Made by a program: the position numbers and the translations under genes
Notes under the pieces: model-generated
Database searches by the model: none
Told to the model about the DNA's origin: nothing
The model's input: only the letters and a program-made list of their open reading frames with translations
Part shown: positions 4,076 through 64,000 of the stretch, one piece after another
How the letters are laid out: the number at the start of each line of letters is the position of its first letter
How positions within the stretch are numbered: the first letter of the stretch is position 1
DNA from: Cyanidioschyzon merolae
Lineage: Eukaryota
Strand: one strand, 5' to 3'
Assembly (NCBI GenBank): GCA_000091205.1
Contig: AP006500.2
DNA: 64,000 bases

Positions 4076-5452
4076 CCCGCCTTTCGATCGTTTCCCGAAT
4101 GTTCGCTAGAAACACAGCTGCAATATTCAAAGTGCAGCAATAACGGCGAATGGATTCATGGGTAGTTCTATGCCCCTCGGTTGTACTATCCGTAGGGATC
4201 CCGTCGACTCCCTGCCGCTGGCATTCGATACGTCACCGGGATCAAGATGGTTCGTGACGCCCTCATACGCGGGTTCGTAACATAGCCGATATCATCATCT
4301 CATTCAGTCGCACGCGCCTGCACTCTTCTGTTTTCCTCAAGTATAGCATGCTTGAATCATGCATTCTTCAAGTTTTCGATATTTCTCCTTAAAGGCAACT
4401 CGAGGGCGCAGCAATGCGTACAGCTGGGTGGACAGCGAAAAGAATCGCAACGACTTCACTTGAAGACTTTGTCACATGCTCATATCGAAGGCTGACTACA
4501 ATTGTCAGGTCAGCTAATCGCATCCGTCCGAGAAGGAAATCCGCCCGTCCTTGAGACAAGCGGCAACGTGGCGTTCACAGCCGGCGAGATAACGCTCACG
4601 GCATACGTCCCCAGAGGCTTCGCTCGCTTCCGTACACACCGAAGAAAATCGGAGACTCAGACCTGAGTTATCGCAGCGACCGCGCCAGATAGAGAGTCTG
4701 GCACCGCCTTGCACGGAGGAAGCGTAGACGGATCGAAGTTTTCTAGAATTGCGCTCCAGCCTGCATTTTTGCCTCGCGGTACATGGTTCACCACGAAAAG
4801 CTTCCCGTTCCACGAATCCTCCATCGAATGCGACACTGTGCACTGGCTTGCGCTGGCTTGCACTGGCTTGCGCTGGCATTGCCCCGCACTGCCTCGAGCC
4901 GACGCCCTCTGTGTGGTACGGCAACGCCGTTCTGCCTCCGTGCAGCGACCGCACTGGCGCTATAGGCGTCATTGCTGTCGCTTTCGGCAGGCACTAGGCA
5001 CACACGATAGGACGTATGAAACGACTAGAATATCCGGGAAGTAGTGTGGGTCATGGAACTTGGAGGCAGGGCGTTCGATGGCTACTTCACCGCACACAAA
5101 CAAAAAGAAAACAAAAAGTGCACAATCGGAGAACGCTGGCCTAAGTAAGCATTTTGTCAGTGAGAAAAATCCGACACTGTGTTCGCTGAGGGCATTGCGC
5201 TGATGCAACCTGCCAGCGAAGCGCACGGCAGCGAGCCCGCAAACTGAGAAGAGCATCGTGGTAAGCCTTCGATACTCGTCAATTGCATGGAACGAGCGAA
5301 AACGCGAGCTGTACGACGCCTCAAAACGGCCCTCCGAGGAAGAGGAGCAGGAGCAGGAGAGGCTTTGGTGGATATACGGGAACACCTGACCACAGCCAAA
5401 AGTCATCGATGCGAGGACGCACAGAGGCTGTATACAATGAAGATGAAAATGG
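4076..5452. repeat. Direct repeat copy R1 (1377 bp), >99% identical to 14734-16110
   Basis: Identical ORF translations (4514-4972 = 15172-15630; 4969-5406 vs 15627-16064, 1 aa difference) and direct sequence comparison; boundaries where identity stops (left ...ctttcgatcgtttcccg; right ...gaaaatggcaagcgaa). Contains the microrepeat cactggcttgcgctggcttgcactggcttgcgctggc (4845-4881). Confidence 0.85.
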
Positions 5453-14733: not shown

Positions 14734-16110
14734 ATTTTCTTTCGATCGTTTCCCGAATGTTCGCTAGAAACACAGCTGCAATATTCAAAGTGCAGCAATA
14801 ACGGCGAATGGATTCATGGGTAGTTCTATGCCCCTCGGTTGTACTATCCGTGGGGATCCCGTCGACTCCCTGCCGCTGGCATTCGATACGTCACCGGGAT
14901 CAAGATGGTTCGTGACGCCCTCATACGCGGGTTCGTAACATAGCCGATATCATCATCTCATTCAGTCGCACGCGCCTGCACTCTTCTGTTTTCCTCAAGT
15001 ATAGCATGCTTGAATCATGCATTCTTCAAGTTTTCGATATTTCTCCTTAAAGGCAACTCGAGGGCGCAGCAATGCGTACAGCTGGGTGGACAGCGAAAAG
15101 AATCGCAACGACTTCACTTGAAGACTTTGTCACATGCTCATATCGAAGGCTGACTACAATTGTCAGGTCAGCTAATCGCATCCGTCCGAGAAGGAAATCC
15201 GCCCGTCCTTGAGACAAGCGGCAACGTGGCGTTCACAGCCGGCGAGATAACGCTCACGGCATACGTCCCCAGAGGCTTCGCTCGCTTCCGTACACACCGA
15301 AGAAAATCGGAGACTCAGACCTGAGTTATCGCAGCGACCGCGCCAGATAGAGAGTCTGGCACCGCCTTGCACGGAGGAAGCGTAGACGGATCGAAGTTTT
15401 CTAGAATTGCGCTCCAGCCTGCATTTTTGCCTCGCGGTACATGGTTCACCACGAAAAGCTTCCCGTTCCACGAATCCTCCATCGAATGCGACACTGTGCA
15501 CTGGCTTGCGCTGGCTTGCACTGGCTTGCGCTGGCATTGCCCCGCACTGCCTCGAGCCGACGCCCTCTGTGTGGTACGGCAACGCCGTTCTGCCTCCGTG
15601 CAGCGACCGCACTGGCGCTATAGGCGTCATTGCTGTCGCTTTCGGCAGGCACTAGGCACACACGATAGGACGTATGAAACGACTAGAATATCCGGGAAGT
15701 AGTGTGGGTCATGGAACTTGGAGGCAGGGCGTTCGATGGCTACTTCACCGCACACAAACAAAAAGAAAACAAAAAGTGCACAATCGGAGAACGCTGGCCT
15801 AAGTAAGCATTTTGTCAGTGAGAAAAATCCGACACTGTGTTCGCTGAGGGCATTGCGCTGATGCAACCTGCCAGCGAAGCGCACGGCAGCGAGCCCGCAA
15901 ACTGAGAAGAGCATCGTGGTAAGCCTTCGATACTCGTCAATTGCCTGGAACGAGCGAAAACGCGAGCTGTACGACGCCTCAAAACGGCCCTCCGAGGAAG
16001 AGGAGCAGGAGCAGGAGAGGCTTTGGTGGATATACGGGAACACCTGACCACAGCCAAAAGTCATCGATGCGAGGACGCACAGAGGCTGTATACAATGAAG
16101 ATGAAAATGG
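14734..16110. repeat. Direct repeat copy R2 (1377 bp), >99% identical to 4076-5452
   Basis: See R1; a few single-base differences (e.g. 4183 a vs 14841 g; 5284 a vs 15942 c). Confidence 0.85.
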
Positions 16111-16814: not shown

Positions 16815-19499
16815 ATGCTTGCCGGGTTCTCAGACGTTTTCTGCTCTCCTCTTAGCCAATCGCCCGCGCACAGAACGTTTAGAGAGCGTGCTGCACTCGA
16901 CACGTCCCGACGGCGCCCCAGAAGTATACGTCGCATAAAGGCTTGTGCAGAGCCGTTATCGGATCACCCGAGGAGACCTTTTTATCGCTTCCACGCCCCG
17001 TCATGGTACGGGCCTTTGCGCCACTTCCCACCGGGTCCAGTACATCCCATGGACTTGTATGGAAGGCCATCGTCCTTATCCATAGAAGATGATCGGGAAA
17101 TTCGCCCCGGTTTGAAAGGAGACTCTGACTTTGATGTCGCGATGCGGTACTGTGAGCATCATCCGCTAGCGCCTATGCGGATCCTCGCGGATGCCCTGGA
17201 AAATGCTCCCGACGCACAGCGCATTCCAGAATGGCCGCAATACCTCCAGTGGTTTGACTGTGATGAGCGAACGGGTGATGTACGTAGCATCTATGCACCT
17301 TTGCATCCCGCGGAATCAGAAAGCATCACGGTGTTGCAGTTCTTTACAACGGAGAATACTGACTGTTGGTTTGGTCACCGATTTTGGCGACATGCGCAGC
17401 TAGTATGCCGGGAATATCCAGCAGTTCGCTTCGTTCGCATTCTCGCAGAAAAGTATGAGGCAGTCCGCGAGAAACTCACTAGAGAGCGAACGGAGCAGAG
17501 GCTGAACGAAAGGCTCGGGGAACGGCCACCGATGCCGAGCAAGCGATCCCTGCACAGCACTTTGGAGCGCGAACGGCTTGACGGTGTCGTTGCAGTGGAT
17601 TCCGAGCGTCTAGATTTTTTTCGGACTGTAGGCGCGATCGGGTGGCCGTTTTGTGTGGTGCTCGCCCCCACAGGCACGCTAGTCGCAAAGTGGTATCAGG
17701 GGAGTCTCTGTGGCGGCCTCGCTCTAGATGAGAACAATGGCCATGTATTCTTGTTGGATATCATCCTAGCAGGAGCTATGGATTACTATGCCACACAATT
17801 GCGTTCCGGCCTTCATCCCGGACAGTTTTCATTGTTGAATGATCCACAAAGGCCGCCTGTGTTCCCTGAGGAGCCGCCAAAACCCATTGGACACCAGCTT
17901 GTGCCACGCTCACCCAAGAAGCAGGCTCAAGAGATGCTGGACAAATCTGAGGCGCTGAGGCTTCGGTACCCTTCCAAAGTGATCGTATTTCGTAGGGTGG
18001 AGCCACTAGCGTCAGCAGTGCGCTCGCCAGACTCCGGGCAGCATCATTCCCTGTGTGACATAGATGACTCGACTGTAACGTCGCGCACTTACATGGTCAT
18101 CGCCGATACGAACAACGATCGAGTGGTTTGGTGCCTCTTGGACGAATCCGGTGCCATACCGAAACTCGATCTACGGCACAACGGAACGGTTGAGGGTCTG
18201 CGACGGCCCCGGGGAATTTGCTACGATCACACGCACGATCTTGTCTACCTTGCTGACACAGAAAATCATCGAATATGTCGTTTCCGAGTACCACAATTCG
18301 CGATGCCGAATCCCGGAACACCGTATCCCGTCGAGTGGATTGCGGGAACTGGTGCTGCAAAATTTGACCTTTTCGGTACCCGAAGAGCGCGCCACCAGTC
18401 GCTGGTCTTTCCCTGGGACGTGGCCGTGGGACCGCGCTTTCGCTTCACTCCGACTGCGCCCTTGGATGAGGCGAACTCAGCCGCACCCTTGGGTTCGCCG
18501 GACCGCAGCCCCGCCTCCCATGCCGTATACGTCACGAACGCTGGTTTGAATCAGCTCTGGCAGATTGATTTCTTCGCGAAACAAACCGCCCCAGATACGA
18601 TGCATCCTGAGCCGCGCTCCTGCCGAGCGGTTTGCGGTAGCGGTGATCATCGCCAACTGGATATCACGAGCGCAGACAACGAACGCTTGCGAATAGAGCC
18701 CAAACGTTCGTGCTGTTTTGTATCGAGTATGGCTCAACCGACTGGTCTCGCACTAATTCCAGAGAGCTGTGCTGGCGATGGCGACACGAAGGGACCCTTT
18801 ATCGCCTTTATCGATGCTGAGTCGAGTTCGGTGCGTTACTTTGCGCCGAGATCACGCAGTCTGTGCACACTGGCTGGAGGCGGCTCAGCAACAGGTGACA
18901 TCGATGACCTCTTTGAGTACGGGTATTTGGATCATGCGTCTGGAAAGAACGCAAGATTTCAGCACCCGCTGGGTATCACGTACGATTCGTCACGTCGAGC
19001 GCTCTTCGTGGCTGACACCTATAACAATTGCATCCGCTGTGTAGACTGGTCGACTGGTGCAGTAGATACAGTGCACCTTGTTCCCGCCGATCCAGCAGCG
19101 ACAGAACTTTTAGTCGACATGGATCAACGTGGAAAGGTAACGCAAGACGATGCGATACCGTTCTGTTTGAACGAACCAACAGGTGTGGAGGCGGATCCAG
19201 AGGCTTTTCAGGGACGAGGCGCGCTCTGGATTGCAGACACGAACGCGCACCGTATTCTCTGTGTCGAGTGGTTACCGAGTGCATCGAGCGAGGACTCGAA
19301 GGAATCGATGGATGACGAGCAGCTTGCTCAGAAGCAAACGCCCAAGCAGCGCGGAGATCAACGGCAAAGGTTGAAGCTTTCGCGGGTCACGCTCTGGGGG
19401 CGTGTGCATGTTGTTTGGGATGATGCCCTTCTAGAGCAGGCCGCTCACTTGGGGCAGCGTGCACGAGCGGGCATCGTTGAGGCTCAGCCCCGAACCTGA
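16815..19499 (+). CDS. NHL-repeat protein resembling NHLRC2 (N-terminal thioredoxin-like region followed by NHL beta-propeller repeats)
   Basis: Repeated NHL-type motifs LVYLADTENHRICRF, YVTNAGLNQLWQIDF, ALFVADTYNNCIRCVD, ALWIADTNAHRILCVE; N-terminal region with VVLAPTGTLVAKW-type thioredoxin-like segment; ATG start at 16815. Confidence 0.65.
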   Translation: MLAGFSDVFCSPLSQSPAHRTFRERAALDTSRRRPRSIRRIKACAEPLSDHPRRPFYRFHAPSWYGPLRHFPPGPVHPMDLYGRPSSLSIEDDREIRPGLKGDSDFDVAMRYCEHHPLAPMRILADALENAPDAQRIPEWPQYLQWFDCDERTGDVRSIYAPLHPAESESITVLQFFTTENTDCWFGHRFWRHAQLVCREYPAVRFVRILAEKYEAVREKLTRERTEQRLNERLGERPPMPSKRSLHSTLERERLDGVVAVDSERLDFFRTVGAIGWPFCVVLAPTGTLVAKWYQGSLCGGLALDENNGHVFLLDIILAGAMDYYATQLRSGLHPGQFSLLNDPQRPPVFPEEPPKPIGHQLVPRSPKKQAQEMLDKSEALRLRYPSKVIVFRRVEPLASAVRSPDSGQHHSLCDIDDSTVTSRTYMVIADTNNDRVVWCLLDESGAIPKLDLRHNGTVEGLRRPRGICYDHTHDLVYLADTENHRICRFRVPQFAMPNPGTPYPVEWIAGTGAAKFDLFGTRRARHQSLVFPWDVAVGPRFRFTPTAPLDEANSAAPLGSPDRSPASHAVYVTNAGLNQLWQIDFFAKQTAPDTMHPEPRSCRAVCGSGDHRQLDITSADNERLRIEPKRSCCFVSSMAQPTGLALIPESCAGDGDTKGPFIAFIDAESSSVRYFAPRSRSLCTLAGGGSATGDIDDLFEYGYLDHASGKNARFQHPLGITYDSSRRALFVADTYNNCIRCVDWSTGAVDTVHLVPADPAATELLVDMDQRGKVTQDDAIPFCLNEPTGVEADPEAFQGRGALWIADTNAHRILCVEWLPSASSEDSKESMDDEQLAQKQTPKQRGDQRQRLKLSRVTLWGRVHVVWDDALLEQAAHLGQRARAGIVEAQPRT

Positions 19500-20039
19500 T
19501 GATGCACGTGCCGTTCTGATCAGCGTTTCAGTACAGTGGGCGTTGTATCCAGGGGTGTAGGTAGCGCTCAGCCGCGTTGCCAAATGTGGTGGCTTCTGTA
19601 GCGGCTTCGATGGATTGTCCTTGCGAGTACGAGGTGCTGTCCGCATGAACGCGCACGCTCTTCTGGAGTTGCTGTTTGTCGAAGACCTGTTCGCCCCTTC
19701 TTTGGCATATGTGTTCGTGCAGTATCGATTTTCTCGACGTTGCGAAGCAGGGCGGATGTGCTGCTCTCATGCTGCTCGTTGCGGTAAACGTATAGATCAT
19801 CATGCAAGCTCAGGGGTGTTTCTTCGTTTTGAGCGTGCATCTACAGGTTGCAGGTCAGGAGGCACTCTCAAAACAGGTGTGCCTGGTGAAAAGCGCGCTA
19901 CGATGCCTGGAAGAGAGTAGTGGAGGCTTCCGGTCTCTTTCGGATCTTCGTGGCAGACTCAGCGCCCGGACGGTCGCTGAGTCTGCCAAATTGTTTTCTT
20001 AGAGTATGGTTGTTCAGTTTGTGGAATCTGGACACATCG

Positions 20040-21590
20040 CCGCTACATCCATTTTACATTAAAGAGGGACACGTTCTCGAACGCTGACGGACACGCTCAA
20101 ATTCTGGCCTTTTTTGATTGCCATCATCATAAGCATTTGCAGGATGTTTCTGCGGATGCTTCATTTTCCTCTTCCTTATCTCCGGATTGTAAAACGCAGA
20201 CCTCTACTGTCGCTTTTTTTCTAGTGCAAGGTGTAAAAGGACGTTGTTGGTAGCGCCAAATGCCCGATTTCGTAGTTTTCCGCTGTTGTCGAAGCTTGTT
20301 ACGCACAGAAGGAAGCTGCGATCTACGCTTCGATTGCCGTTTTCATCTTCCTGTGTACAACTTGTCGGCCTGCTTGGCAGCGATGACACTTTGCTATGGT
20401 CAGATGTTCCGGTATGTCTCGTGCAGTAAGTCCTGCTTCTAGGGCCATCCTATGATTCTTGAACGCTCGCCCTGCAGCTCGGTAGAAGCTTTGGACGAAA
20501 AAGAGGGCTTTGCTCGATGCCTTCCTATTTTGTCGTGATCGCTATCGTCTCATACGATCACGAGCTTCCTCTGGAAGATTCCCTGGACGAGGACTCTGTC
20601 CGCTGCGCATGGGAGCGCATGCTTTTTCACTAGAGATGGGATTTGCGGAACGCGATGTTGTCTATGATGAAAAGTACCTGAAAGAAAATCTACGCTGCAG
20701 AACAAGTCCAGAAATTTCGATCCATCTACGTGCTCTTCGTCGAATGCTGCATCACGTTTTGCATTGCAAGCGATCGTACCGATGGCTGAATTCCAAGTCC
20801 AGGACCCTTTTCCACACAAGCAGAAGAGAAGGAAGCCTCCGAGAGCGTATTCAGTGATGGGATTATGGCGCTGTCGATTGCTGTTTCAAGGGCGGCCATG
20901 ACGAGAGTGGAATTTGTCCTTCGAACAGAATCGATTGTTAAACGTTAGAAATTAAGTGGGCTTTGAGCCTAAGATTGTGAATAGGTTGTCAAAGGGCGAC
21001 GTCGAGTATTTTTTTGCCGTCAATGCAATGGCGTGAGTTGGTGCGTCTACTAGTTGCCTCGAAACAGGGATATCGCAAACTTGGGGAATCTACGATTCGA
21101 GAATGCTGCACACGATGAACGGAGAATCGGGGCTTGGACGCATGCACTGGATAATTATATAGATTGCATGGCGAAGCCTTGTCCAATGTCATTGCAAATT
21201 ATGCGGGTTACGGTAAAGTAACCAAATCTAGCGGCGAAGCATACATTGCGCGACTCCGAAAAGACGAGCAAGCACTCCAAAACTAAGAATGAATTCGTAA
21301 GCCCATAATCTTGCATTTTGAATGTCAAGTATATTCATCGGGAAAAACGAAAGGAAACCACAGAGCGCGCTATTCAGTATTCCATTTTCATCTGATGTCG
21401 GTGAAGATATCAGAGCTAGGTCCCGGCGATCAACAACGTTTTGCAAAACCCGAACATTTTTGTTCATCATGTTCGATTCTGTGGCATGACAAACGCCGAA
21501 GGCGTCATACCCATTTGCGTCTGCTGGAACAAGCGAGTCTCTGGGAAGGCGCTGAAGTCTCGTACCCTGATCGTTGGCAGCGATCCCTCA
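20040..21590. repeat. Dispersed repeat block, copy A (about 1.5 kb), diverged colinear homolog of 30500-32100; directly abuts Fanzor remnant
   Basis: Multiple colinear matching segments at roughly 75% identity and constant offset about 10.45 kb: catcatcataagcatttgcaggatgtttctg vs catcaccataagcgtttgcagaatgtttctg; aagctgcgatctacgcttcgattgcc vs aatttgcgatctacgcttcgcttgcc; gaaagaaaatctacgctgcagaacaagtccag vs gaaaggaaaatccagactggagaacaagtccag; ttacggtaaagtaaccaaatctagcggcgaag vs ctacggtaacgtcaagaattgcagtcgccaat; lower GC than flanks. Confidence 0.55.
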
Positions 21591-22400
21591 TCCAGGAAGC
21601 GCTGACTCAACTGGCCCATAATTTAGGTGCTCAAGGACGCGAAAACGTTTCGCTACCATAGAGTGTACATATATGTCTACTTGCAGACAACTCCCGGACT
21701 GTTTCGACAGGACTCCTGCTATCCTCTTCAGCTTCTCATCGTATACTTCGAGCCCGAGAGGCTGCTCCATAAAGTTAGATAGCCACAGCCCTGCGGGTCT
21801 TGTCTTCAGTACCGCACATTGTCGGATTTTTATGGCGATGTTGAAGTCTCTGTTCACGAACTCTATGCGTTCGTTCTCGCTGGTGGAATTCACTGATACA
21901 AAGAGTCCTCGGACTCGTGCCCTGTATGGCGCCAAAGTCTCGTCATCGTTCCATCGGGCAAACGCCTTTTCTCGACGATCTCCTCATTTCTTCTTCGTCC
22001 ATTGTTCTTCTTCTTCGCTCGAGAGTCAACGAGAAGAGGATTTTTTGTTGTTTTTCCTGCACCCGGCGATGCCGACCCCCCTAGGATTCCCGACTTGCAT
22101 GTCCATACTTTCCCCTGGTTTTTTTATCACTTCAAACGAAAGCACTTTGCATGCGTCCGCGGTAAGCAGCGAAAAAGCATTTGATGACATGCACCTGAAT
22201 GCGGAACACTTTTCAGGGCAAAGACTGCGATGCGATAGCGATCAGCAGCGCGCGGCGCACCGCCGAGGCGTTACGCATTGCGGAATCGCGCACGCACGTA
22301 CGCATGCACGCATCGTATGGCGGCTTCCCGCCAGGCGATCTCGCTGATCCGTGCATGCCACGCGGACGGCACAGCCGTTATCGCCACATGCAACTGGCAT
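21588..22400 (-). pseudogene. Decayed Fanzor-like (TnpB/OrfB homolog) gene remnant, C-terminal RuvC-III region retained
   Basis: ORF 21588-21935 (minus) RARVRGLFVSVNSTSENERIEFVNRDFNIAIKIRQCAVLKTRP...LEVYDEKLKRIAGV..SGSCLQVDIYVHSMV aligns with the intact copy RAKVRGLLAIVSTTRNGKKRMEFVNRDFNAAINVRRCAVLETRP...VELDEKKLEAVVG..AGRCLHVSWRHLL; nucleotide homology to 59988-60165 visible; upstream continuation has frameshifts and stops (e.g. ..MER then shifted RARVRG; GRMQSAF stop vs GGKQRAFANF). Confidence 0.55.
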
Positions 22401-49378: not shown

Positions 49379-50407
49379 TCACTGGGGCCTGACAGTCGCT
49401 CGTGGCGACTCAACAGCGCATCGGTTCACTGTGGCGGGGCCACCGTCGCTTCGCAGCGCGACCTGCACTTGCCGGTAGGCTTCCCAGAGGGCAATGGCGG
49501 CGCTGGTCGATAGATTGTACGATCTGATACCGGCATCACCGGGACACACCATTGGAATCGCAATCGTCCGCTCCCGAGGAATATCCTCGGGCGGAATGCG
49601 TTCGAAACCATCTAGCTCGTTCCCAAATATTAGCGTGATCTTCGTTGCAAGAACCTCACTTCCTTTCTTTGATGAGACAAGGTCCGCGTCCAGCAACGAG
49701 CTCTGTGCGAACTTGGTGAAGTAAAAAACGTTACCCAACTGGGGCAAACCCTCGTCGCGAAAGGCCTGCCAACTCGACCATACACGCAGATCAACGAAAG
49801 GCCAATAGTCAAGGCCAGCCCGTTTCAGGTGGCGATCACTCAGAGAAAAACCCAGCGGTTCAATGATATGAAGCCGTGCTTGAAAACCTACTGTAGTTCT
49901 GGCGGTATTCCCGGTATTCCAGTGAATAGAGGGTGCGTAGAAAACAACGTTCAGTAGGGGCTCGCCTGTGCCCGTGTGACGCAGTGGCGCGCTCACAACG
50001 CCTGGGCCATAGCTCGCGCGTACGCACTTGCTTCTCGAGATGCACTGTCGAGATGCTCTACTGACGCCTGCGAAACAGGGCAGTTCTGGTGACCACTCGG
50101 TAACAAAAACGAACTCGAGTGCGCGCATAAGCGCCTGGCGTCGGTACCAGGTTCCTGTGTCCATACAGAGCGCGCAATATGAGGAATACTGGGGTGTTCG
50201 CCCTGCGGCGAGTGCATTTCTTTGTGGTTCTTTGAGAGCACGTTTCCTCGAACAGGGAATCGTCATCATTGCTGACTTGATACCAGCAATGGGAGAGCGT
50301 GCATGTATCCACGCCTTTCCTCCAACTTCTGAGACCCATATTCCCCGTCGCAGGTAGTGGTCATTTCGTGCGTTCCGCAGTGCGCCGAGTCTGCCATGAG
50401 CGTCCAC
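49379..50407 (-). CDS. SpoU/TrmH-family RNA 2'-O-methyltransferase, TrmL-like (tRNA wobble-position methyltransferase), with about 150-aa N-terminal extension (possible organellar targeting)
   Basis: C-terminal 170 aa LNVVFYAPSIHWNTGNTARTTVGFQARLHIIEPLGFSLSDRHLKRAGLDYW...RTIAIPMVCPGDAGIRSYNLSTSAAIALWEAYRQ is colinear with bacterial TrmL ([73 protein letters not shown]). Confidence 0.7.
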   Translation of the reverse strand: MDAHGRLGALRNARNDHYLRRGIWVSEVGGKAWIHARSPIAGIKSAMMTIPCSRKRALKEPQRNALAAGRTPQYSSYCALCMDTGTWYRRQALMRALEFVFVTEWSPELPCFAGVSRASRQCISRSKCVRASYGPGVVSAPLRHTGTGEPLLNVVFYAPSIHWNTGNTARTTVGFQARLHIIEPLGFSLSDRHLKRAGLDYWPFVDLRVWSSWQAFRDEGLPQLGNVFYFTKFAQSSLLDADLVSSKKGSEVLATKITLIFGNELDGFERIPPEDIPRERTIAIPMVCPGDAGIRSYNLSTSAAIALWEAYRQVQVALRSDGGPATVNRCAVESPRATVRPQ

Positions 50408-54792: not shown

Positions 54793-57294
54793 CGAGACCG
54801 GAACGATTGCGTTTGCTCAACACAGACTCGGCATCAGCTCGTTAAAAGTGCGACCATATTCATGTGTGTCACATGTTTCCGAACGACCAGATTTGCGATG
54901 CCTAGTCGCCTGCAGGTGTCCCGATGCCCCCAGTGAACGACACACGACTGATACTGAGGCGACAAGAAGCATGTGTTGCTGCGTCTGACATTCGCGTAGC
55001 GGTGGCTGCGGCTCAAGGCTTGTCCAGAAAGCGCTCGAGCGTCAAAGCGTCTGCAATTTTGGTGCAGGTTGATCGCGTGTAAACTCTGCACAGGCACGGA
55101 GTTGGTCAACGATAACGTGTTTCCGGACACAGTTCTCGGCGCTTTTTCGGTGCACGGTAACGGTGCGTTCTGCTTGTATGCGAGCTGCAACGCCCCGAGA
55201 AGCGTAGGGCGTAGCACTCAGTGTTTCTAGGATTGAAAATGGTACGGTTCTGGAAACACGTTGTACCTGCCGGTGGGCTTGTAAACGGAGTGCGATGGCC
55301 TGATTGGTAGCCCTGCACCAGAGCATACGCTGTGTGTCGGTTGTTGGCACGGGCCGAAGCCGAACCCAGCACCTGCACTTTTATCGTCGTTACCGTCGCT
55401 CATGCATCACTGGAGATCAGATGGCTATGATGCGTGTAAGCACAGCAATGCCGCTTTTCGACAAGTCGTTCTCTGCGCTCACCAGTCCTGGACTGCTGTG
55501 TAGCATCTCTGCTCATACGTAGGCTGGAGCGTAAAATCCGCGCGCTAGTCCATAGGCGTGCTCGTGACGGTAGTAACGAAAATGAACCTATGGCATACCA
55601 GGTACATAGAAAGAAAAGGCGGGTTTCGGTTCCAAAGCCAAGGAGAAGGCGAAGAATCCCGAAGGCGACGATTAGCAGACGGATCTTCTCGAAAAGAAAC
55701 CCCCGAGAGGCATGAAGGAAAAACTGTCGGGGCGGATGGATCAGTCTAAGACCGCTGCCATGGCATTCTTCATGGGAACATATCAAAGGATAGACCCTTT
55801 TAAAAAGTGAGGCACAGGGCGTTATCACGGATCATGTTGCTCCAAATTTGAACGAGACACGTCTGGCTTTTCTCGCCTTGAAGAACCTCGTTAAACAACT
55901 GCCTGTAGGAGTTGCGGACACAGGGTTCCCAGCTGTCGTCATTCATCGGGAAGCCCTGGGTCAAAACTCGATGGGACTAGTGCTTTACAGGACAGGAGCT
56001 GCAACACGGCCTGATCGTGGGTCCCAGGTTTTGCACACACGCTTCGCAGCATACCTCGACGCATCGCTATGCCATATCGGTCATCGGGACACCTAGAGCG
56101 CATGTGCCAAAGGGCATCGACATAAGCTCCCGGAGCGTATGGGTGTCGATGTCCAGCGTCTCATGAAGCGCACCCTGTGGGCGTCGTCGAAGTCTCTCCC
56201 TAATGGACCAGAAAACCGGGACTCAAGGAACCGATTCTACGCTTCGTGGAGTTTACAAGCGTCCAAGTGGCTCATGCGGACGATCTGTGACTAGGCTGCA
56301 TGAGACTGCACTAGGCCCGCGAACGATTTCATTTACACGAAAGCAATGAGCGTGTACACACCGAGCTATTGAATGAGGTGGCAAATGGAATGACCGCCAA
56401 GTCGCCTTATTTTGTGGCCGCCCATCGCGCTCGACGTATGGCAGCGAGCATGGGCTACACGCCCGCTTTTTGGCGATTGCGTACAATGAGTCCAGGAAAC
56501 GATTCTGCGCGATTTCCGAGGACACCTTCAGGACGGCATAGAGGCATCACGAGCACGGGTGCTTGCTGAAACTGCCAACGGAGAAGCGCGTAGAACAGAG
56601 ACGGATGCACGGGATAGTGTGCGGTACGCTGAGCGAATGCCAAATGGCGAGGCAACCGGAGATGAGCGGCGTCGCCTGGGTCGGATTCCACCGGTAACCC
56701 TGCGGGCAGGCAGTCTCTGCATCGAGACTTGAGCGTCACCGTCAACATTCGACAATGTCTCGCGTATCCGGAGCGTCCAGCGGATTTGTGTAGAGCGACC
56801 TTTCAAAGGAGTCGTTTCGTATTCAGCACGGGTATTTCGCTGAACCGCTGAAGACTCTGGATGAAAAAATACATGCAGTCAGGGTAGAACGCGTAGTCCA
56901 TGCTCGACTGGATCAACGCATTGGTATGGTGTGGTTCAGGGATCGGGCAAGGTCGGAACACCAGACGTGCAATCAACGGAAATGCTTTTCCTGTTCATTG
57001 ATAAACGATTTCAATGTTGCATTTTCCGATCATATACCGGACACCTGTCAACCGACACCCAGGCTCTGGGATACAGCGATTTCGCCATCGCGACGGGGAA
57101 GCGTGCTTCGGCTCGCTTCTCAAGCGCCGTACGCTGGACCCAGACTTGGATTCGAGTCTGAGAATCCGTCCCCGAAGTGAACAAGCGCCCTGGTTCCATT
57201 TCAAGCTAGCGTATGGGTAAAAATTCGCGTTTTACATCGATGCGGCCCGTCACACCCATTCACATACGAGTCGGCGTGAACGCGGCGATCCGAG

Positions 57295-59979
57295 TCAAAC
57301 GGATGCTTGGTTATCTGTCTCGTCCCAGAGCGGTACACGCAACACCGGCTCTATCAAAACAACCCAGGGCTGTAGCCCCGACTGCTCTTTGATGATATCG
57401 CTGGCAGGCCGCTCCGCTCGCAGATCATCACCCCAGGATGCAACCAGCAGCACATCGATCCACACAAAAGGCATGGTGAGCACATATCGAAGCGACTGGG
57501 AGAACGCCTCCACTCGCTCTGGTTCAGCCGTTGACCAGCTCATGTTCGTCCCAGTGCAGAGCGTTGTCAGATCCTCGTCAAGTACCCAAGCCGAAATCAC
57601 CGTCGGCGCAGAAGCGATTATTTTCCGATTTTCGAAACGCAGGTCGTCATTTAGAAACGGCTGATTTTCCACCGCTTCTTTCGATCCACTCGGGCACTGG
57701 AATGGCAGATCTGTCAAAAGCAGCTGCAGCATGTGCCGCGAGTCAGCGTCAACGATCCAGTGCACGTCGCAGACGCAGGCGTACACGCGGTAGAGCCGAT
57801 GCATTGGAGTGTCGGCGCGCGCGCACGCATTACCCGCTGCACGCATCGAGCGCAGTGCACGCATGTCATCCAACATATGCGCAAGCGACTGAGGGCGTAG
57901 CGCTTGCCAGGGTATGCTCATCGTTGAACTTGTCTGTAGCAGCGGTGGACCACTACAATGCAGGCAGCTGGGGTGCTGTACAGGACCCCGTTTGACAATT
58001 CCTGTCTCTGCGGACTCGATATTAGTCGTTGTATGGGAGGTGGTGGTGTAGGCAACGCGTTCGCGATTCAGTTCGGTGCACGGGGCGCTGAGTATGGGAT
58101 AGGCAGCAGCGCTCATTTGTTCCGGTGTATTTCGGGTGCCAAGCGCACGCTGGTGAGCAACGGGCGCTGCTTCGTATGCGCTTTGCGAATCGGTCCGACA
58201 CGTGGGATCAGTCAATGCTGCTCCCAAGTGCTGCATGCGACTTTGCACCTCGGGCATCCATTGCGGGAACTTGTAAATCGATGAACCCTCATTCATGGTC
58301 AGGCGCAAAGGCAGACCCGGGCGTCGATCGAGGCGTACATCGCGAAGCCGGAACCAGTTACCGCGAAGGTGCGGCTCCAGTCGATGTGTGAGCCGCGTCC
58401 AGCACTCTGCGGCAATGGAGACCGTCACCAAATCGGAGATGCTTCCGTCGGTGACTTTGAGCAGGAATTCGTACGGGGTTTTCTCCAAGTCCCGAATGAG
58501 CACCACCAGATCGTATCGTAGCCGTTGCATGGCGCTGCCGTTTGCTGAGTCGACCACAAGCGAACTTTGCAGAATGTCTCGCAGGGTGGCGGAGAACGCC
58601 TTCGAGCCGAGAAAGCCGCTTTGCGACAGGAGTGCACGCGCCCAACGTAGCAACTCCATGGCGTAACATTTTTCACTATTGGTGATCACGATCGATTTCG
58701 TGTTTGACGGGTAAGCATATATGAGCGGATCGGGTAAATGATTCATTTCTTCGAGATGAGTGGCGGTCGCGGCTCGCAGACCGGACAAGTCTCCGGAAGC
58801 GGAAGCCGACGAGCGTCCCAAACCAGCTCCCTCATCATGCTGAGCAAGTGCAGGCCAGAGGCACATAGAAGAGAGCGAATTTGTCTTCAGCTCCAACGTC
58901 TCCGTCTTCGAACCACTCGGACTCTGTTGGGGAAACCACCGCAGCTCGGCGCGATGTACCCGGACGACGTCTCCTACCCCGATGTACGGAACGCAATCGC
59001 TAAGACGGCTACTGAACGAGGTAAGCATGAATTGGGGAGGTGCGAAGCTCACCAGCCGCCCATCAGAGTCTGTTACGACGATGCTTGGATCGATGATCTG
59101 CAGCTCAGTGAGCAGTTCTCCGGTACGTACCAGGCGAGGCGCCCGGACGTCGACGATCACCCCGTAAACGTCATACGTGCGACCGGACATCTGGCCGGGG
59201 TGTCGCAACTGCTCAAGCGTTAAGTAGTGATGTTTTGAGTCCAGGGGCACTACAGGCCTCGGAACTGGTTCGCAACTTTCGTGCTGTGCGACGGGGCGTC
59301 CACTGGTGTCCGTCCCTGCACCATGCTCTGTGACGACCAGAGTTTGCCCTATAGACTCCGGAGACAGCTTCATGATACGTGCGTTTGCAAGTTGGGATAG
59401 ATCGTTGCACTTGCCGGCGTCTTTGAATATGGTGAGCGCGGGTTTGCAGGCTGTTGCGTCTGCGGCACCAGCACAGCAGGCCTCTCGCTGGTCAGGACCC
59501 AGTACCACCGCGTACTCGTGTAGTTCCAGACACGAGTCCAACAGTCCATGGTCCCTGGCCTCACAAATGTCGCCCAGCGGTACGACCTGTGCGTTCTGAA
59601 CCTCCACAACGTCCCAGTGTGCTAGGGCGGTGCCCGCGGCCGTCCAGTCGCCGGTGCAAACAAGCACAACCACGGTCTGCTGTGGAGCAGGAACACTCGG
59701 CCAGGGCTCAAGTAAAGCAAGGATCGCTCTACCTGAACGATTTTCAACTAATGTTCGAAGGACTCGCCCTCGTAGACGAAATGGATGCTCAGCGTTGCAG
59801 GTGTAGGGCTTGAGGCTCCGAAACTGCACGAGACGCAGTTCCATAGATTCCGTCGCACCAACAACGCCGTTCGAAAGTCGAACGACGCCAACGGTGTACA
59901 GTAGTGGCGGGAAAACCGTCTTAGAGAAGATGTCTCCAACTGACGTGCAGACACCTCCCCGCCTTTTTGGACCGGCCAC
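57295..59979 (-). CDS. POT1-like telomere end-binding protein (OB-fold); annotated start overlaps Fanzor stop, true start may be internal Met (MELRLVQF..., about 59844)
   Basis: HYLTLEQLRHPGQMSGRTYDVYGVIVDVRAPRL...LQIIDPS...GDVVRVHRAELRWF is colinear with POT1 OB1 (YTYLPLNQL...VNVYGVVKFF...IVDQT...GDIVRFHRLKIQ); an additional OB-like segment lies N-terminal. Confidence 0.5.
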   Translation of the reverse strand: MAGPKRRGGVCTSVGDIFSKTVFPPLLYTVGVVRLSNGVVGATESMELRLVQFRSLKPYTCNAEHPFRLRGRVLRTLVENRSGRAILALLEPWPSVPAPQQTVVVLVCTGDWTAAGTALAHWDVVEVQNAQVVPLGDICEARDHGLLDSCLELHEYAVVLGPDQREACCAGAADATACKPALTIFKDAGKCNDLSQLANARIMKLSPESIGQTLVVTEHGAGTDTSGRPVAQHESCEPVPRPVVPLDSKHHYLTLEQLRHPGQMSGRTYDVYGVIVDVRAPRLVRTGELLTELQIIDPSIVVTDSDGRLVSFAPPQFMLTSFSSRLSDCVPYIGVGDVVRVHRAELRWFPQQSPSGSKTETLELKTNSLSSMCLWPALAQHDEGAGLGRSSASASGDLSGLRAATATHLEEMNHLPDPLIYAYPSNTKSIVITNSEKCYAMELLRWARALLSQSGFLGSKAFSATLRDILQSSLVVDSANGSAMQRLRYDLVVLIRDLEKTPYEFLLKVTDGSISDLVTVSIAAECWTRLTHRLEPHLRGNWFRLRDVRLDRRPGLPLRLTMNEGSSIYKFPQWMPEVQSRMQHLGAALTDPTCRTDSQSAYEAAPVAHQRALGTRNTPEQMSAAAYPILSAPCTELNRERVAYTTTSHTTTNIESAETGIVKRGPVQHPSCLHCSGPPLLQTSSTMSIPWQALRPQSLAHMLDDMRALRSMRAAGNACARADTPMHRLYRVYACVCDVHWIVDADSRHMLQLLLTDLPFQCPSGSKEAVENQPFLNDDLRFENRKIIASAPTVISAWVLDEDLTTLCTGTNMSWSTAEPERVEAFSQSLRYVLTMPFVWIDVLLVASWGDDLRAERPASDIIKEQSGLQPWVVLIEPVLRVPLWDETDNQASV

Positions 59980-61297
59980 CCACTACTGCTTCCAACTTTT
60001 TCTCATCTAGTTCGACTTTGATAGGTTGTCCAATAAAGTTCTCTCTTGTCAGCTCTGGAGGTCTCGTCTCCAGGACCGCACATCTCCGTACATTGATAGC
60101 GGCATTAAAGTCTCGGTTCACAAACTCCATACGTTTCTTCCCGTTGCGAGTTGTACTCACTATTGCGAGTAGCCCTCGAACTTTCGCCCTCCTTTCCATT
60201 TGCTCCTCCGTCAGCGGTCCGTACTTTGCTATTTCCTCAGGGCTCCTCTGGCACTTTTCTATCTCCACGCTCTGAAGTGTACAACCCAGTTCGTGGTATA
60301 TATACGATGTTCGGAACTCATCTACAGGTATCGTAACAAAACGCCTTGCGCACTGTTTGTGCACCCTCGTCGTTGGAGCTGGAGTAGTGCCTTTCTTGGG
60401 CGCCCAGCGCCCTGCCCCATACGCTACTACGAGCCTTTGACTTTCATCCTCCTTCAAGGCGCTCAACTGATTGAAAAAGTTGGCAAACGCCCGCTGCTTC
60501 CCACCGTATAGATTCATTCGCAAACGAGCCCACCGGGGCTTCGTATACTCCTCCCACAGCGCATCCCAATGCGCCATGCGAACTTCCATGAATTTCCGAA
60601 AAGCTTCAAATTTCGCGCTTCGGCTAGTCACCTTGCTCAAAGCTTCCAGGTGATCCTTCATCCCTGAATTCCAAGTCTCGATTTTCTTCCTTGCATTCAT
60701 GATTCCCGATTCTCGATAGTATCTCGCTCTCGAGAACGTCAAGAGACGCATGTCTTTCTGACGTAAGTTGCCGTCAGTACAATCTTCCGCCCGCTTCGGT
60801 GCTGCGATGGTGATGATATTTGAGTTTCCGGTGTCCGCGCCAACGACAAAGTCGTTATCTTGCACTTTCTGCTTCTCAGAACCGGGCTTCTTGTTTTCTT
60901 CATGGTTCGTCGCGTCAACGACAAAGTCGTTATCCTGCACCTCCTGCACCAGAGGATCCGCTTCCTTCCCATCTTCATCCTTCGTCACGTCAACGACAAG
61001 GTCGTTATCCTCCACCTCCTGCATCGCAGGTTCTGCCTCCTTCTCATCTTCATCGTTCGTCACGTCAACGACAAAGTCGTTCTCTTGCACCTCCTGTGTC
61101 GCAGGATCCGCCTCCTTCTCATATTCATCCTTCGCCACGTCAACGACAAACTCGTTATCCTCCACCTCCTGCATCACAGGATCCTCCTCTTTGTTTTCTC
61201 CATCCTTCGCGACGAGCGCAGCCGAGGGCGGAACTGGCCGACCTTCCTTCAACCGCCGATAGTGTACACACAAGGGTACTCCATCGGTTTCGATCAA
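59921..61297 (-). CDS. Fanzor-like protein, C-terminal segment (acidic tandem repeats, RuvC-II, Zn-finger-like, RuvC-III)
   Basis: See the mobile_element entry; the ORF-track start at 61297 is TTG, and the reading frame is open a further 30 codons upstream. Confidence 0.75.
   Translation of the reverse strand: MIETDGVPLCVHYRRLKEGRPVPPSAALVAKDGENKEEDPVMQEVEDNEFVVDVAKDEYEKEADPATQEVQENDFVVDVTNDEDEKEAEPAMQEVEDNDLVVDVTKDEDGKEADPLVQEVQDNDFVVDATNHEENKKPGSEKQKVQDNDFVVGADTGNSNIITIAAPKRAEDCTDGNLRQKDMRLLTFSRARYYRESGIMNARKKIETWNSGMKDHLEALSKVTSRSAKFEAFRKFMEVRMAHWDALWEEYTKPRWARLRMNLYGGKQRAFANFFNQLSALKEDESQRLVVAYGAGRWAPKKGTTPAPTTRVHKQCARRFVTIPVDEFRTSYIYHELGCTLQSVEIEKCQRSPEEIAKYGPLTEEQMERRAKVRGLLAIVSTTRNGKKRMEFVNRDFNAAINVRRCAVLETRPPELTRENFIGQPIKVELDEKKLEAVVGGRSKKAGRCLHVSWRHLL
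60841..61215. repeat. 5 x 75-bp in-frame tandem repeat (minisatellite) inside the Fanzor-like ORF, encoding acidic 25-aa units (EVQDNDFVVDVTKDEDEKEADPxxQ)
   Basis: Unit starts caacgacaa(a/g)gtcgtt at 60841, 60916, 60991, 61066, 61141 (period exactly 75); protein shows DNEFVVDVAKDEYEKEADPATQEVQENDFVVDVTNDEDEKEAEPAMQEVEDNDLVVDVTKDEDGKEADPLVQEVQDNDFVVDATNHEENK. Confidence 0.85.
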
Positions 61298-61677
61298 CCC
61301 AGTAAATACCTTTTTTTGCTGACTTTTAGACGTTTGAAATCGAAGATACTCTTCCAGTACGTCTCCCGGTGTTCGCCGGAGAACTCCTCCCTGCTAACAT
61401 CGAACTCCGGACAGATCTCCCTCATGATGCCGTAAAGGACGCCGGAGTCGATAGTTACAAAATGTGACTTGACTTTCCACATTGGAACCACGTTGAAGCG
61501 CTTCCCCATTAGGAAATTCTTCCGTCTCTCCCACTGTTCATTTGTCTCTTCACTCAGCTTCACCTCCGCTTTGCGTGCGAGCTCTCGGTCCAAAAACACG
61601 AAATAGCGCAGGATGAGGCGGTAGTATCTTTCCTTATCTTTTTTCAACGGTGATATCTTGTCTGTTGGATTCACCAA
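61294..61677 (-). CDS. Fanzor-like protein, middle segment containing RuvC-I (VTIDSGV)
   Basis: Frame joins the C-terminal segment if the A7 run at about 61313-61319 (plus strand T7) is A8; ORF-track start is TTG/GTG. Confidence 0.65.
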
Positions 61678-62423
61678 CCCAGTGCCGCACGGTGCTCTTG
61701 TATAGCCGCACGGATCACAGAAGCTTCATTCGTGCTCCTGCGTGATGTCTTCATATCGACAAATTCGATCTCATCTTCATACTTTCGATCGTTCGTGATG
61801 CCGTTGATCATCGCCCATATTCCTTTGCGAGAGATGCCCGGGTAGAGTGCAAACACGGCGCGTTTCATGAAACGTTCGAGGTTCTCTGTCAAATGCTTCT
61901 TCAGGTTCGTAATGTACTTCATTACCCCGTATGTGTAAATATTTCCGTCACCCTTGTATCGGGTACGCTCGAAGCGGTATTCGGCGTAGTTTTCGTGGAG
62001 AGCGTGCACTAGCACATTTTCCTTCCGCGCTTCCCCTGTACCAAGCATCAGGTGACGAATAAAGGTCTTGTGGAAAAACTCGTCTGGAATCTCGACCGTT
62101 TCCATGTGCGTCACGTCGCGATACATCTCCCTCGCCAAATGCATCAGCCCTGAAGACGCCTTGACAATACTCTTGGAGTGCGAGTCGACACGTTTTTCGA
62201 TAGCGTCTCGCAACTTTTCCCTGTAGGGATCCTTGATATGTCCAAGAAGGAAGGCTTTCACCACCATCTCGTCGTACAGTCGTCTTTCTTGCCGCCTTCG
62301 ACGTAGGGCGTCCACCTTTCGATTCTCCTTCACTTCCTTTTCTTCTGGACTCGGCACTGTATTTGTTTTTTTTCTGGCAGCCGGCGACACTGGGCCTCCA
62401 GGATCGTGGACTTGCTTTTTCAT
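61671..62423 (-). CDS. Fanzor-like protein, N-terminal segment
   Basis: 250-aa ORF with ATG start (MKKQVHDPGG...), basic N-terminus (KKTNTVP..RRRRQERR, NLS-like); frame shifts by one relative to the middle segment within 61673-61720. Confidence 0.6.
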   Translation of the reverse strand: MKKQVHDPGGPVSPAARKKTNTVPSPEEKEVKENRKVDALRRRRQERRLYDEMVVKAFLLGHIKDPYREKLRDAIEKRVDSHSKSIVKASSGLMHLAREMYRDVTHMETVEIPDEFFHKTFIRHLMLGTGEARKENVLVHALHENYAEYRFERTRYKGDGNIYTYGVMKYITNLKKHLTENLERFMKRAVFALYPGISRKGIWAMINGITNDRKYEDEIEFVDMKTSRRSTNEASVIRAAIQEHRAALGW

Positions 62424-63626
62424 AGCTTTCCTTTTTTAGTTTTTTTGAGAAAGAACGCTCTTTGAACCCTTCTGTTATATACTGCGAAAAATTAATCGAA
62501 TATTTTTACTTGAGGTTTGAAGCACAATCGAACTGAAAGACTGTACGTTGCTATGACCTGAACGAAAATACAACGTTTACAATAGATCTACATGCTAGAG
62601 ATCAGGATCACGTTCCCCTTCAAAAACGGCATGTGCGTCGTGTCTCATGCCTGCCTGATCTCCGAGGTGCGCTCACTGAGCGCGATGCAAACTAGTCACA
62701 AACTATTTATCAAAGAACAACTATCTTTAAGCCCAACACACCACGCCCGCATAAGAGGTCTAGTTTTTCCGGAGAAGCTCTGAAAGTGGGCGAACGCGGG
62801 GTGCTTGGGCGACGGCGAAGGAAGCCCACGACAGGGACGTTGACCGCAACGAACAGAGGGGCGCAGACAGTGGCAGCAGAAAATATTGACGAGGGTTCTG
62901 AGCAGTCATCCGCTGCTCTCGAAACAACGCTGCAGGCTCCGGCGCAAATCCTGGATTCATTCTTGAACTCGGGCTCAGGATTACCTCCTACATTGGTTTC
63001 TACCTCAACTCTGGAAACAGTCTCGGCGGATACTTTGGAAGACGGCTGGCAGTATGTTCGCGGTCGAAGCTGGAATAAGCGACTTATCCGCCTATGTGTT
63101 TGGGGAGCGGATACGAAGCCGCTGAAAGGGTAGTTCGTAGAGTATCCGCTGTGGTTGCGGGTAGCTTCACGCGTCCGGCAAGATAAAGGTCGCATTCGAA
63201 TCGACCTTGACTAATGTACTTCTGATTTTACGCTAGCACTGCGGCAAGCACTCAGTGAACGACTGGAATGCAGGAGGCAATGGTGGCGTGTGCGTTCTCA
63301 CACCCTGGGGAGGGTGCATCTAAATCGACGACGTATCTCTGGAGTACCGCAGCGTTACTCCTATTCCCTTATGCGCTACGACTCGATAGGTTTCGCATCA
63401 TGGAATATTTGTGGGATAGCCTCGATACTAGACGACGAGATATCGAATTACCAGTACAGTAATGAAGAACTGATACAAGTCGTTGACTGTACAATGGGTA
63501 AAGAGACCCAACCAGATACGGAGAAGGAGACACAGAAACCTCATGATCCACCTAGATGCAAAATATCCAGAGAAAGCAGCTCAGGAAAGAGCCCGAAGAA
63601 GAAGAAGACCAGCAAGAAAAAATAGA

Positions 63627-64000
63627 TGAATAGAAAGAAGAACTCCCAAACGAGCCCATCACAAGTCATCCCCCGAAAGGGCACCCCAGCGGGATCTCAA
63701 GAAAGCTGTCACCAAACCCAGGCACCTGCTCACAGCGCTGAAGATCCGAAAAGCCGTGAATACAAATCTTCAGACCAATTGGCACGCGAGTTTGTAGATG
63801 GGAATCAGAAGATTGCCAGAGAACTGGGACTGCTTGCACCTGAACACAACAGTAGCAAGCCGCAGTACCTCAAACGACGTACCAAAACTCGGATTGATGA
63901 ATGCCACCGACTCCATAAGATCGTCAACCGCACCGCCATACGCGCCAACGCCGGAGACAAGGAAGCGAAAGCAGCGCTACCGGCGCTACAGGCGCAACAT
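63627..64000 (+). CDS. Hypothetical ORF, 5'-complete, runs off the right edge (MNRKKNSQTSPSQVIPRKG...REFVDGNQKIARELGLLAPEH...); AT-richer DNA adjacent to the Fanzor-like element
   Basis: Manual translation from ATG 63627; open to window end; basic/low-complexity; no family recognised. Confidence 0.2.

Follow-up and report, generated by a model that had tools for sequence, protein, structure and literature searches.

A copy of the transposable element CMe-1A, a Fanzor1 family, lies on the minus strand of a 64,000-nt stretch of the genome of the alga Cyanidioschyzon merolae (contig AP006500.2; the whole stretch is called the window below), and its right end stops just short of the start codon of a gene for a putative telomere-end-binding protein. 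We think it probable, with some reservation, that the segment at 59850-59994 is the right-end (RE) module of this decayed copy and that its fold is an omegaRNA scaffold. The same arrangement recurs in the family: at a substantial fraction of distinct insertion sites, the right end lies immediately upstream of the start codon of a gene on the same strand. The family is already known; its guide-RNA-like scaffold is new and this placement bias appears to be, and the bias deserves follow-up.

Bao and Jurka (Mob DNA 2013, 4:12; PMC3627910) reported a single Fanzor1 family in C. merolae, CMe-1A, with about 150 copies that are approximately 80% identical to a 3,169-bp consensus; the family has no inverted repeats, its target duplication was undetermined, some of its copies are intact, and the consensus protein (CMe-1) has 734 amino acids (aa). 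The 5' 635 bp of the consensus are identical to another repeat, TE-N2_CMe (PMC3627910). The window element is a copy of this family. Consensus positions 660-2196 align to window positions 62672-61135 at 85.8% identity, positions 2122-3169 align to 60909-59865 at 87.6%, and the Fanzor protein of the window matches the published 734-aa protein. Consensus positions 1-659, the TE-N2_CMe part, are absent at the window copy, and another repeated module stands in their place. The window copy has the size (about 3 kb), the lack of inverted repeats and the identity among copies (about 80%) of the published family, but it carries 4.9 acidic 75-bp units where the consensus has about one, and it has two frameshifts. 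The published description is silent on RNA structure and on where the copies lie with respect to host genes. The original prediction for this locus, made from the sequence before the present analysis, had not recognised the Fanzor copy as CMe-1A and had missed that it is a pseudogene, frameshifted twice.

The right end of the element is at 59865-59852, which is 57-70 nt past the Fanzor stop codon and 8-20 nt before the ATG of the telomere-protein gene. Homology by blastn with approximately 70 independent copies on metagenome contigs ends at window positions 59852-59863. The published consensus ends at 59865, inside the 3' arm of the terminal hairpin described below (P4); conserved sequence extends about 10 nt beyond that point, and a semi-conserved G/T-rich tail carries the similarity among copies to about 59856. 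From the first bases beyond the terminal hairpin the copies are unrelated, as judged from the flanks of about 50 distinct sites. The original prediction had correctly read the minus-strand Fanzor-like open reading frame (ORF) as stopping at 59921 (the codon is TAA, 59923-59921) and had put the element terminus in the 5' region of the telomere-protein gene, a statement that holds more strongly now that the distance to the ATG is 8-20 nt. Its boundary, about 30 nt past the stop codon, was too short, as the 70 or so copies and the consensus both indicate. The second copy that had served as its ruler proved unsuitable: a blastn search of 59001-64000 against the window finds no second copy, and tblastn finds only a diverged 3' remnant on the minus strand at 21679-21923, with 69% nucleotide identity to the consensus and 50% amino acid identity.

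On the left, the part common to most copies begins at 62669-62688 (minus strand), with a palindrome, GCGCTCAGTGAGCGC, at 62683-62669. Upstream of about 62688, about four repeated classes can be told apart among the 5' flanks of the copies, and the TE-N2_CMe sequence of the published consensus belongs to one of them. The window carries a different class, a repeat of at least 1.3 kb that occupies 62689-64000 and so reaches the end of the window; the same module recurs ahead of Fanzor in four of the metagenome loci (L072, at 1958-3318, and L074, L051 and L018), and its ORFs have no match in Pfam. We searched the window element for terminal inverted repeats and found none, and the left flanks of the copies showed no common motif.

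The gene that follows the element (57295-59844, minus strand) encodes an 849-aa protein of the telomere-end-binding protein alpha or POT1-like type. Translation from the ATG at 59844 is 100% identical to XP_005538644.1/BAM82608.1 of C. merolae 10D over all 849 residues, and the window is thus from strain 10D. RefSeq names this protein 'similar to telomere-binding protein alpha subunit'. The sequence support for N-terminal oligonucleotide/oligosaccharide-binding (OB) folds of the POT1/TEBP-alpha type is weak but consistent: the Pfam POT1 match is weak (E = 1.3e-5, 25.5 bits, under the 29-bit cut-off), the ORF resembles the TEBP-alpha chain of Sterkiella/Oxytricha (1k8g, E = 5e-5), and the orthologues carry PF02765.

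The coding sequences of the Fanzor and the telomere protein do not overlap. Called mechanically, the telomere-protein ORF runs from a GTG at 59979 to 57295 (minus strand, 894 aa) and overlaps the Fanzor ORF by 59 nt. The original prediction had placed the Fanzor stop inside the start of the POT1-like ORF on this basis; the overlap of the raw ORFs stands, but 59979 is an artefact of ORF calling and not the annotated start. The RefSeq protein begins at the ATG at 59844-59842, the first Met of the mechanical ORF, and its orthologues in Cyanidiococcus yangmingshanensis (846 aa) and another cyanidiophyte (844 aa) both begin at the equivalent Met. Nucleotide homology with the POT1 orthologues also begins exactly at 59844. 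The distance from the Fanzor stop codon to this ATG is 76 nt, in agreement with the earlier estimate of at most about 77 bp to the first plausible Met, and because 76 is not a multiple of three, the two genes are in different frames. The 45 additional residues of the 894-aa ORF result from translating the element's right end in a different frame, and the same residues are present ahead of unrelated genes as well. A telomere protein that begins at 59979, within the Fanzor gene, or a fusion protein, is therefore hardly credible. Such an overlap could cite the mechanical ORF itself and the prokaryotic gene callers applied to hot-spring metagenomes, which give the same 894-aa product, but it would also need GTG, which is unusual as a eukaryotic start codon.

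The same prokaryotic callers prolong other host ORFs into the element. For example, propionyl-CoA carboxylase beta is given as 680-875 aa instead of 604 aa, as the telomere protein is given as 894 aa instead of 849. The CMe-1A end is open in some frames, and host ORFs are wrongly extended into it, a point of some importance for annotation.

The conserved block at the 3' end of the Fanzor ORF (59994-59852) lies on the strand of the nuclease gene and reaches the right end of the element. The RE module, or candidate omegaRNA scaffold (59850-59994, minus strand), comprises the last 24 codons, the stop codon and a non-coding tail of 65-70 nt. In its predicted fold, the 5' strand of the long-range stem P1, GCAGUAGUGG (59980-59989, codons E-A-V-V-G), pairs with CCACUACUGU (59898-59907) in the tail. 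P2 is a hairpin over the last 12 Fanzor codons (59924-59960) that ends at the TAA, P3 is a small GC hairpin, and P4 (59856-59896), with the sequence CACCG.UGGCGUCGUUCGA-CUU-UCGAACGGCGUUG.UGGUG, is the terminal hairpin. All of these elements are on the minus strand. The 145-nt sense strand has a minimum free energy of -67.3 kcal/mol (z = -5.54), and none of 200 shuffled sequences folds as well; the antisense strand reaches only -45.2 kcal/mol (z = -2.2). A covariance model of the module (R1) scores 161.7 bits at the window locus and has 78 matches in related loci, with E-values down to 1e-30, which exclude chance as an explanation of the homology. With filters switched off, a search of the whole window with this model found no other solo right end, and Rfam contains no match for the module.

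We measured conservation of the pairing in two alignments, a plain MAFFT alignment of 46 non-redundant copies and a model-fitted alignment of 69 distinct rows. RNAalifold, applied to an unfitted 215-nt MAFFT alignment, recovered only a 4-bp GGCG/CGCC stem because indels misalign the terminal hairpin, and explicit pair counting together with the covariance model was used in its place. In the plain alignment, 73.9% of the cells are paired, compared with 34-56% when the partners are slid against each other; for the fitted alignment, the corresponding values are 76.8% and 35-57%. Pairs that change on both sides number 23 in the plain alignment, against a shuffle mean of 15.9 (1 of 500 shuffles reaches 23), and 31 in the fitted one, against 19.8 (0 of 500). 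Counted by cells, changes on both sides amount to 44 against 34.1 (7/500) and to 100 against 46 (0/500), respectively.

The helices contribute unequally to these counts. Helix 1 (P1) is paired in 84% of the cells across copies, with changes mostly to G.U, and helix 3 (P2) is paired in 79-80%, with many alternations between G.U, G-C and A-U. In helices 5-7, which form the terminal hairpin P4, 18 of 18 pairs change on both sides somewhere in the family, and other copies carry compensated variants that are plain from their sequences (TTCGA/TCGAA, TTCTA/TAGAA, TTTTTC/GAAAGA). The fitted alignment has 485 G.U cells and 186 A.C cells, the unfitted one 327 and 141, a 2.3- to 2.6-fold excess of G.U that fits pairing in a sense-strand RNA. 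The fold is strand-specific and conserved across copies, with moderate support from covariation.

We favour the view that this fold is an omegaRNA scaffold because the segment has the position and the anatomy of characterised Fanzor guide RNAs. Those RNAs arise from the 3' region bordering the right end of the element and may fold together with the terminal part of the ORF; their guide consists of the 14-21 nt of flank that follow the conserved scaffold (Saito et al. 2023, PMC10432273; Jiang et al. 2023, PMC10530073). SpuFz1, GtFz1, ApmFNuc and CrFNuc share with the window element a structured 3' segment at the right end, a co-fold with the ORF, and then variable flank (PMC10432273, PMC10530073). 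The claim of a guide RNA in the 5' region of the telomere-protein gene, as originally made, thus stands as far as a conserved, omegaRNA-like segment is present there; from its likeness to the characterised systems we infer that the segment is an omegaRNA.

Several points weigh against this identification. The omegaRNA role proposed for the segment is read from sequence. For CMe-1A a target-adjacent motif (TAM) is not definable because the left flanks are variable repeats. At this locus the nuclease gene is broken, both in 10D and, by different lesions, in two Yellowstone variants. As regards the fold, the structure was derived from the window sequence itself, the control with slid partners is biased in favour of the structure, and the stronger counts come from the fitted alignment, which leans towards the model. 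P2 and half of P1 are coding, which confounds conservation in these parts, and a G/T-rich strand may account for some of the G.U excess. Finally, the scaffold differs between 10D and the Yellowstone variants at 1 of 145 and 4 of 145 positions, which is not clearly below the divergence of the pseudogene; divergence between 10D and Yellowstone is too low for a test of constraint on the scaffold.

The hairpins might instead be signals in the DNA, marking the transposon end for some transposase, as subterminal hairpins do in IS200/IS605 and a 3' hairpin does in Helitrons. The element would suit such a scheme in that it has no terminal inverted repeats (as PMC3627910 also states) and no determinable target-site duplication, has a palindrome at 62683-62669, on its left boundary, and a hairpin in subterminal position, 0-10 nt from its right end, and is inserted with a strong strand orientation relative to host genes, as expected of single-strand transposition. 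However, a DNA signal would not call for the many G.U pairs or for an antisense strand that folds much worse, and it is not obvious what the long-range stem to the coding region or the hairpin at the stop codon would do in such a signal. The hairpins of the two ends also have unrelated sequences, and no transposase gene lies in or beside the element. The window element has no ORF besides Fanzor, hence none for an HUH transposase or helicase, and the copies end in ..GGTG, ..GGGG or ..CTGG without the CTRR 3' end of Helitrons. We therefore regard a role confined to DNA as unlikely; DNA signals as such are compatible with an RNA scaffold, and in TnpB systems the same DNA does both.

If the module is an omegaRNA scaffold, a mechanism can be proposed. 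In intact copies, the 3' part of the Fanzor transcript would fold into the scaffold, in which the long-range stem would link codons near the C terminus to the conserved tail motif ACUACUGUAC, followed in order by the hairpin over the last codons, the small GC hairpin and the long, G.U-rich terminal hairpin. The Fanzor protein would bind this scaffold as its omegaRNA, and 15-21 nt transcribed from the host DNA just past the element end would serve as the guide. The nuclease would then cut an element-free copy of the same site, and repair would restore the element. According to the model for TnpB, what a guide of this kind marks for cleavage is the site without the element and not the occupied site. 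Since the terminus is 8-20 nt from the ATG, any guide made at this locus would be templated by the leader and the first codons of the telomere-protein gene. The putative guide would be CGACGGAAUCUAUGGAACUGC (59835-59855, minus strand), which runs across the leader and holds the start codon at 59844-59842. With the element this close, the telomere-protein gene would have to be transcribed from within the element or through it.

The position of the right end relative to host genes shows a pattern across the family. We located right ends with the covariance model and removed duplicate sites on the basis of their flanks, which gave 51 distinct insertion sites; for each, we measured the distance from the right end to the start of ATG-initiated ORFs of at least 200 aa on the same strand. 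The sites are on Yellowstone metagenome contigs of C. merolae, not in the finished 10D genome, with mechanically called ORFs, and the null expectation comes from random non-ORF positions and strands in the single 64-kb window, with binomial P values. An ORF starts within 25 nt of the right end at 8 of the 51 sites (expected 0.9%, P = 1e-8), within 50 nt at 11 (expected 1.7%, or about one site; P = 1e-9), within 100 nt at 17 (expected 3.3%, P = 3e-13) and within 200 nt at 24 (expected 6.4%, P = 1e-15). The left side looks quite different: the nearest gene there is at least 0.85 kb away at 20 of 22 sites, and usually about 1 kb or more. At five sites the stop codon of a convergent ORF lies within 25 nt of the right end.

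The genes downstream of the right ends are unrelated to one another; they encode, for example, an anion transporter, an M13 peptidase, propionyl-CoA carboxylase beta, a triose-phosphate-type translocator, a UbiE-like methyltransferase and phosphoglucomutase. For 9 of the 10 ORFs that we looked up, the 10D RefSeq protein is exactly as long as the ATG-to-stop ORF used in the count. Example sites among loci L009-L088 are L038:5999, L031:996, L055:215, L015:5978 and L064:6001, together with 59844-59856 in the window. Because the bias recurs across the 51 sites, the telomere-protein case is typical of the CMe-1A family and no singular accident. We found no description of the bias in the searchable literature, and it appears to be undescribed so far.

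These counts also bear on a simpler account, in which the segment is nothing more than the part of the Fanzor mRNA that forms its 3' untranslated region (UTR) or terminates it, and chance insertion in a compact genome has put this part next to the telomere-protein gene. The segment does follow the stop codon directly, this copy is a pseudogene, and intergenic regions in C. merolae are short. Yet a plain 3' UTR would not explain pairing that takes in part of the coding region and has been maintained by compensatory changes, nor would chance explain a proximity to co-oriented starts that recurs at many independent sites (P about 1e-9 within 50 nt and about 1e-15 within 200 nt) while genes on the left stay at least 0.85 kb away at 20 of 22 sites. 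We consider this account improbable.

A stronger contender, though in our judgement still on the unlikely side, is that the right end has been taken over as the promoter or 5' leader of the downstream host gene, with the conserved segment driving or starting transcription of the telomere-protein gene and, at other copies, of the genes beside them. The ATG is 8-20 nt from the element end here, and at the orthologous loci of the two other species, neither of which has a Fanzor, the gene is preceded by 1.5-2 kb of upstream DNA beside a divergent P5-ATPase gene. (The orthologous proteins are 40-42% identical, and the loci are too diverged for an empty-site junction to be defined at the nucleotide level.) Moreover, the insertion is kept in 10D and carried by every C. 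merolae-like metagenome variant seen, while the nuclease ORF decays, and the co-oriented starts within 50 nt at 11/51 sites and within 200 nt at 24/51 would suit a leader. Against this, the segment is equally conserved in copies that do not adjoin a gene, an 18-bp terminal hairpin ending 12 nt before the ATG would impede scanning if it were part of the leader, and promoter activity alone would not explain insertions so near to start codons. A leader function and an RNA scaffold are not exclusive.

As to the cause of the bias, insertion is either directed in one orientation to the stretch just ahead of start codons, or insertions of this kind are the only ones that persist. One may imagine that sense-oriented insertion or selective retention just upstream of start codons yields guides templated by the leader and first codons of the host gene and hence an addiction-like retention of the element; dozens of host genes would, instead or as well, have the element end as the region where their transcription starts. 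We put this forward as a speculative proposal that is more likely wrong than right by a wide margin. Were it true, Fanzor targeting would be tied to the starts of needed genes, and imprecise repair after loss of the element would be costly, so that the element would be retained.

The assignment of the window protein to Fanzor1 agrees with its sequence motifs and with profile searches. The C-terminal piece of the gene (59921-61297, minus strand) carries RuvC-I (GADTG), RuvC-II (VDEFRTS) and RuvC-III (NRDFNAAIN), with Asp, Glu and Asp in the canonical order, and these motifs are kept in relatives: in an alignment of 48 sequences, D6 and E178 are invariant and D247, N249, A251 and N253 are nearly invariant. 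A search with the reconstructed protein found relatives only in Yellowstone hot-spring metagenomes; a metagenome scan gave 374 stretches coding for relatives, and 80 loci from among them were used here. More distant relatives (1,403 matches from 1.84 billion representative proteins) were needed to connect the protein to structures. A profile of the C-terminal part with these relatives matches three solved Fanzor1 structures, those of Parasitella Fz1 (9cf0, E = 1.1e-18), Spizellomyces Fz1 (8gkh, E = 6.7e-11) and Guillardia Fz1 (9cer, E = 6.8e-5). Searches of the Protein Data Bank with the single window protein and with a profile of the close family gave no Fanzor match. In Pfam, the three Fanzor ORF pieces and their homologues have no match, and ten distant relatives gave one weak Cas12f1-like TNB match only. 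An AlphaFold2 model from a 20-sequence alignment had a mean predicted local distance difference test (pLDDT) score of 30 and was unusable for fold comparison.

The nuclease gene at this locus is decaying. In the window it is split into three pieces on the minus strand: the C-terminal piece (59921-61297) is parted from the middle piece (61294-61677) by a 1-nt deletion in an A-run at about 61318, and a second frameshift near 61680 separates the latter from the N-terminal piece (61671-62423). Both are frameshifts relative to the homologues; for example, one metagenome copy (L003) reads through both junctions in a single frame, within an open Fanzor ORF of 819 codons. A 75-bp tandem repeat of 4.9 units (60841-61209, minus strand, 81% matches) lies inside the Fanzor ORF just before RuvC-I and encodes acidic 25-aa units, of which copies of the family have between about one and five.

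Two Yellowstone metagenome contigs, L009 and L010, represent the same locus, including the telomere-protein gene, and are 98.9-99.2% identical to 10D over 57000-62510. The insertion is therefore common to the Italian strain 10D and the Yellowstone populations. Divergence from 10D is 1.0-1.8% in the Fanzor part and 0.5% in the telomere-protein gene. In L010 the A missing from 10D at 61318 is present, which repairs the A-run, but a stop codon interrupts the Fanzor ORF at another position, and L009 has two other indels in this ORF; in other words, none of the three carries an intact nuclease ORF at this locus, and their disabling lesions differ, which is why we describe the gene as decaying. With the local nuclease dead, RNA made at the locus could act only in trans, with protein from another copy, and the RE module at this locus is probably a relic.

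CMe-1A departs from the characterised Fanzors in several respects. The window element lacks a right inverted repeat, the CxxC pairs between RuvC-II and RuvC-III are reduced to HHxxxC...C in the window protein, and the similarity of the proteins is visible only with a profile. With IS200/IS605 elements that carry TnpB, it has in common the lack of inverted repeats and the subterminal hairpins at both ends; overlap of the guide-RNA scaffold with the nuclease gene's 3' end and with the right end would be a further likeness if the candidate scaffold is one, and a shared homing to the vacated site is plausible. Unlike those elements, CMe-1A has a eukaryotic host, no TnpA gene was found, no conserved target motif lies beside its left end, the protein is much larger (about 734-834 aa), and the 5' modules vary between subfamilies. 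Insertions of Ty3, Tf1 and the P element concentrate just upstream of genes in compact genomes. The CMe-1A bias differs from theirs in being orientation-specific and within 0-50 nt of the start codon, and CMe-1A has no integrase or transposase of those kinds.

C. merolae has an almost intron-free genome of 16.5 Mb, and gene targeting by homologous recombination is routine in it. If the 3' module is a guide-RNA scaffold and the element ends do lie at host start codons, this alga would allow RNA-guided homing in a eukaryote to be tested directly. It could also show whether the element is stabilised when its guides extend into needed genes, and whether host genes, a telomere-protection gene among them, can use the end of a transposon as their start region. 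The native function of Fanzor nucleases in eukaryotic cells is unknown (PMC10530073).

Other features of the window are of minor interest. An NHL-repeat ORF on the plus strand (16815-19499) also has 894 aa; it is unrelated to the POT1-like ORF, and the shared length is a coincidence. The CMe-1A remnant at 21679-21923, in a low-GC stretch (20000-22000), has no co-oriented gene after it, and it keeps the TGTACAC motif and a small hairpin, GCGAAACGTTTTCGC, after its coding part. A repeat of about 290 bp, related to consensus positions 84-256 in the TE-N2_CMe part, has copies at 4891-5173, 15549-15831 and 50319-50401, and in several metagenome loci this repeat directly adjoins the 5' boundary of Fanzor copies.

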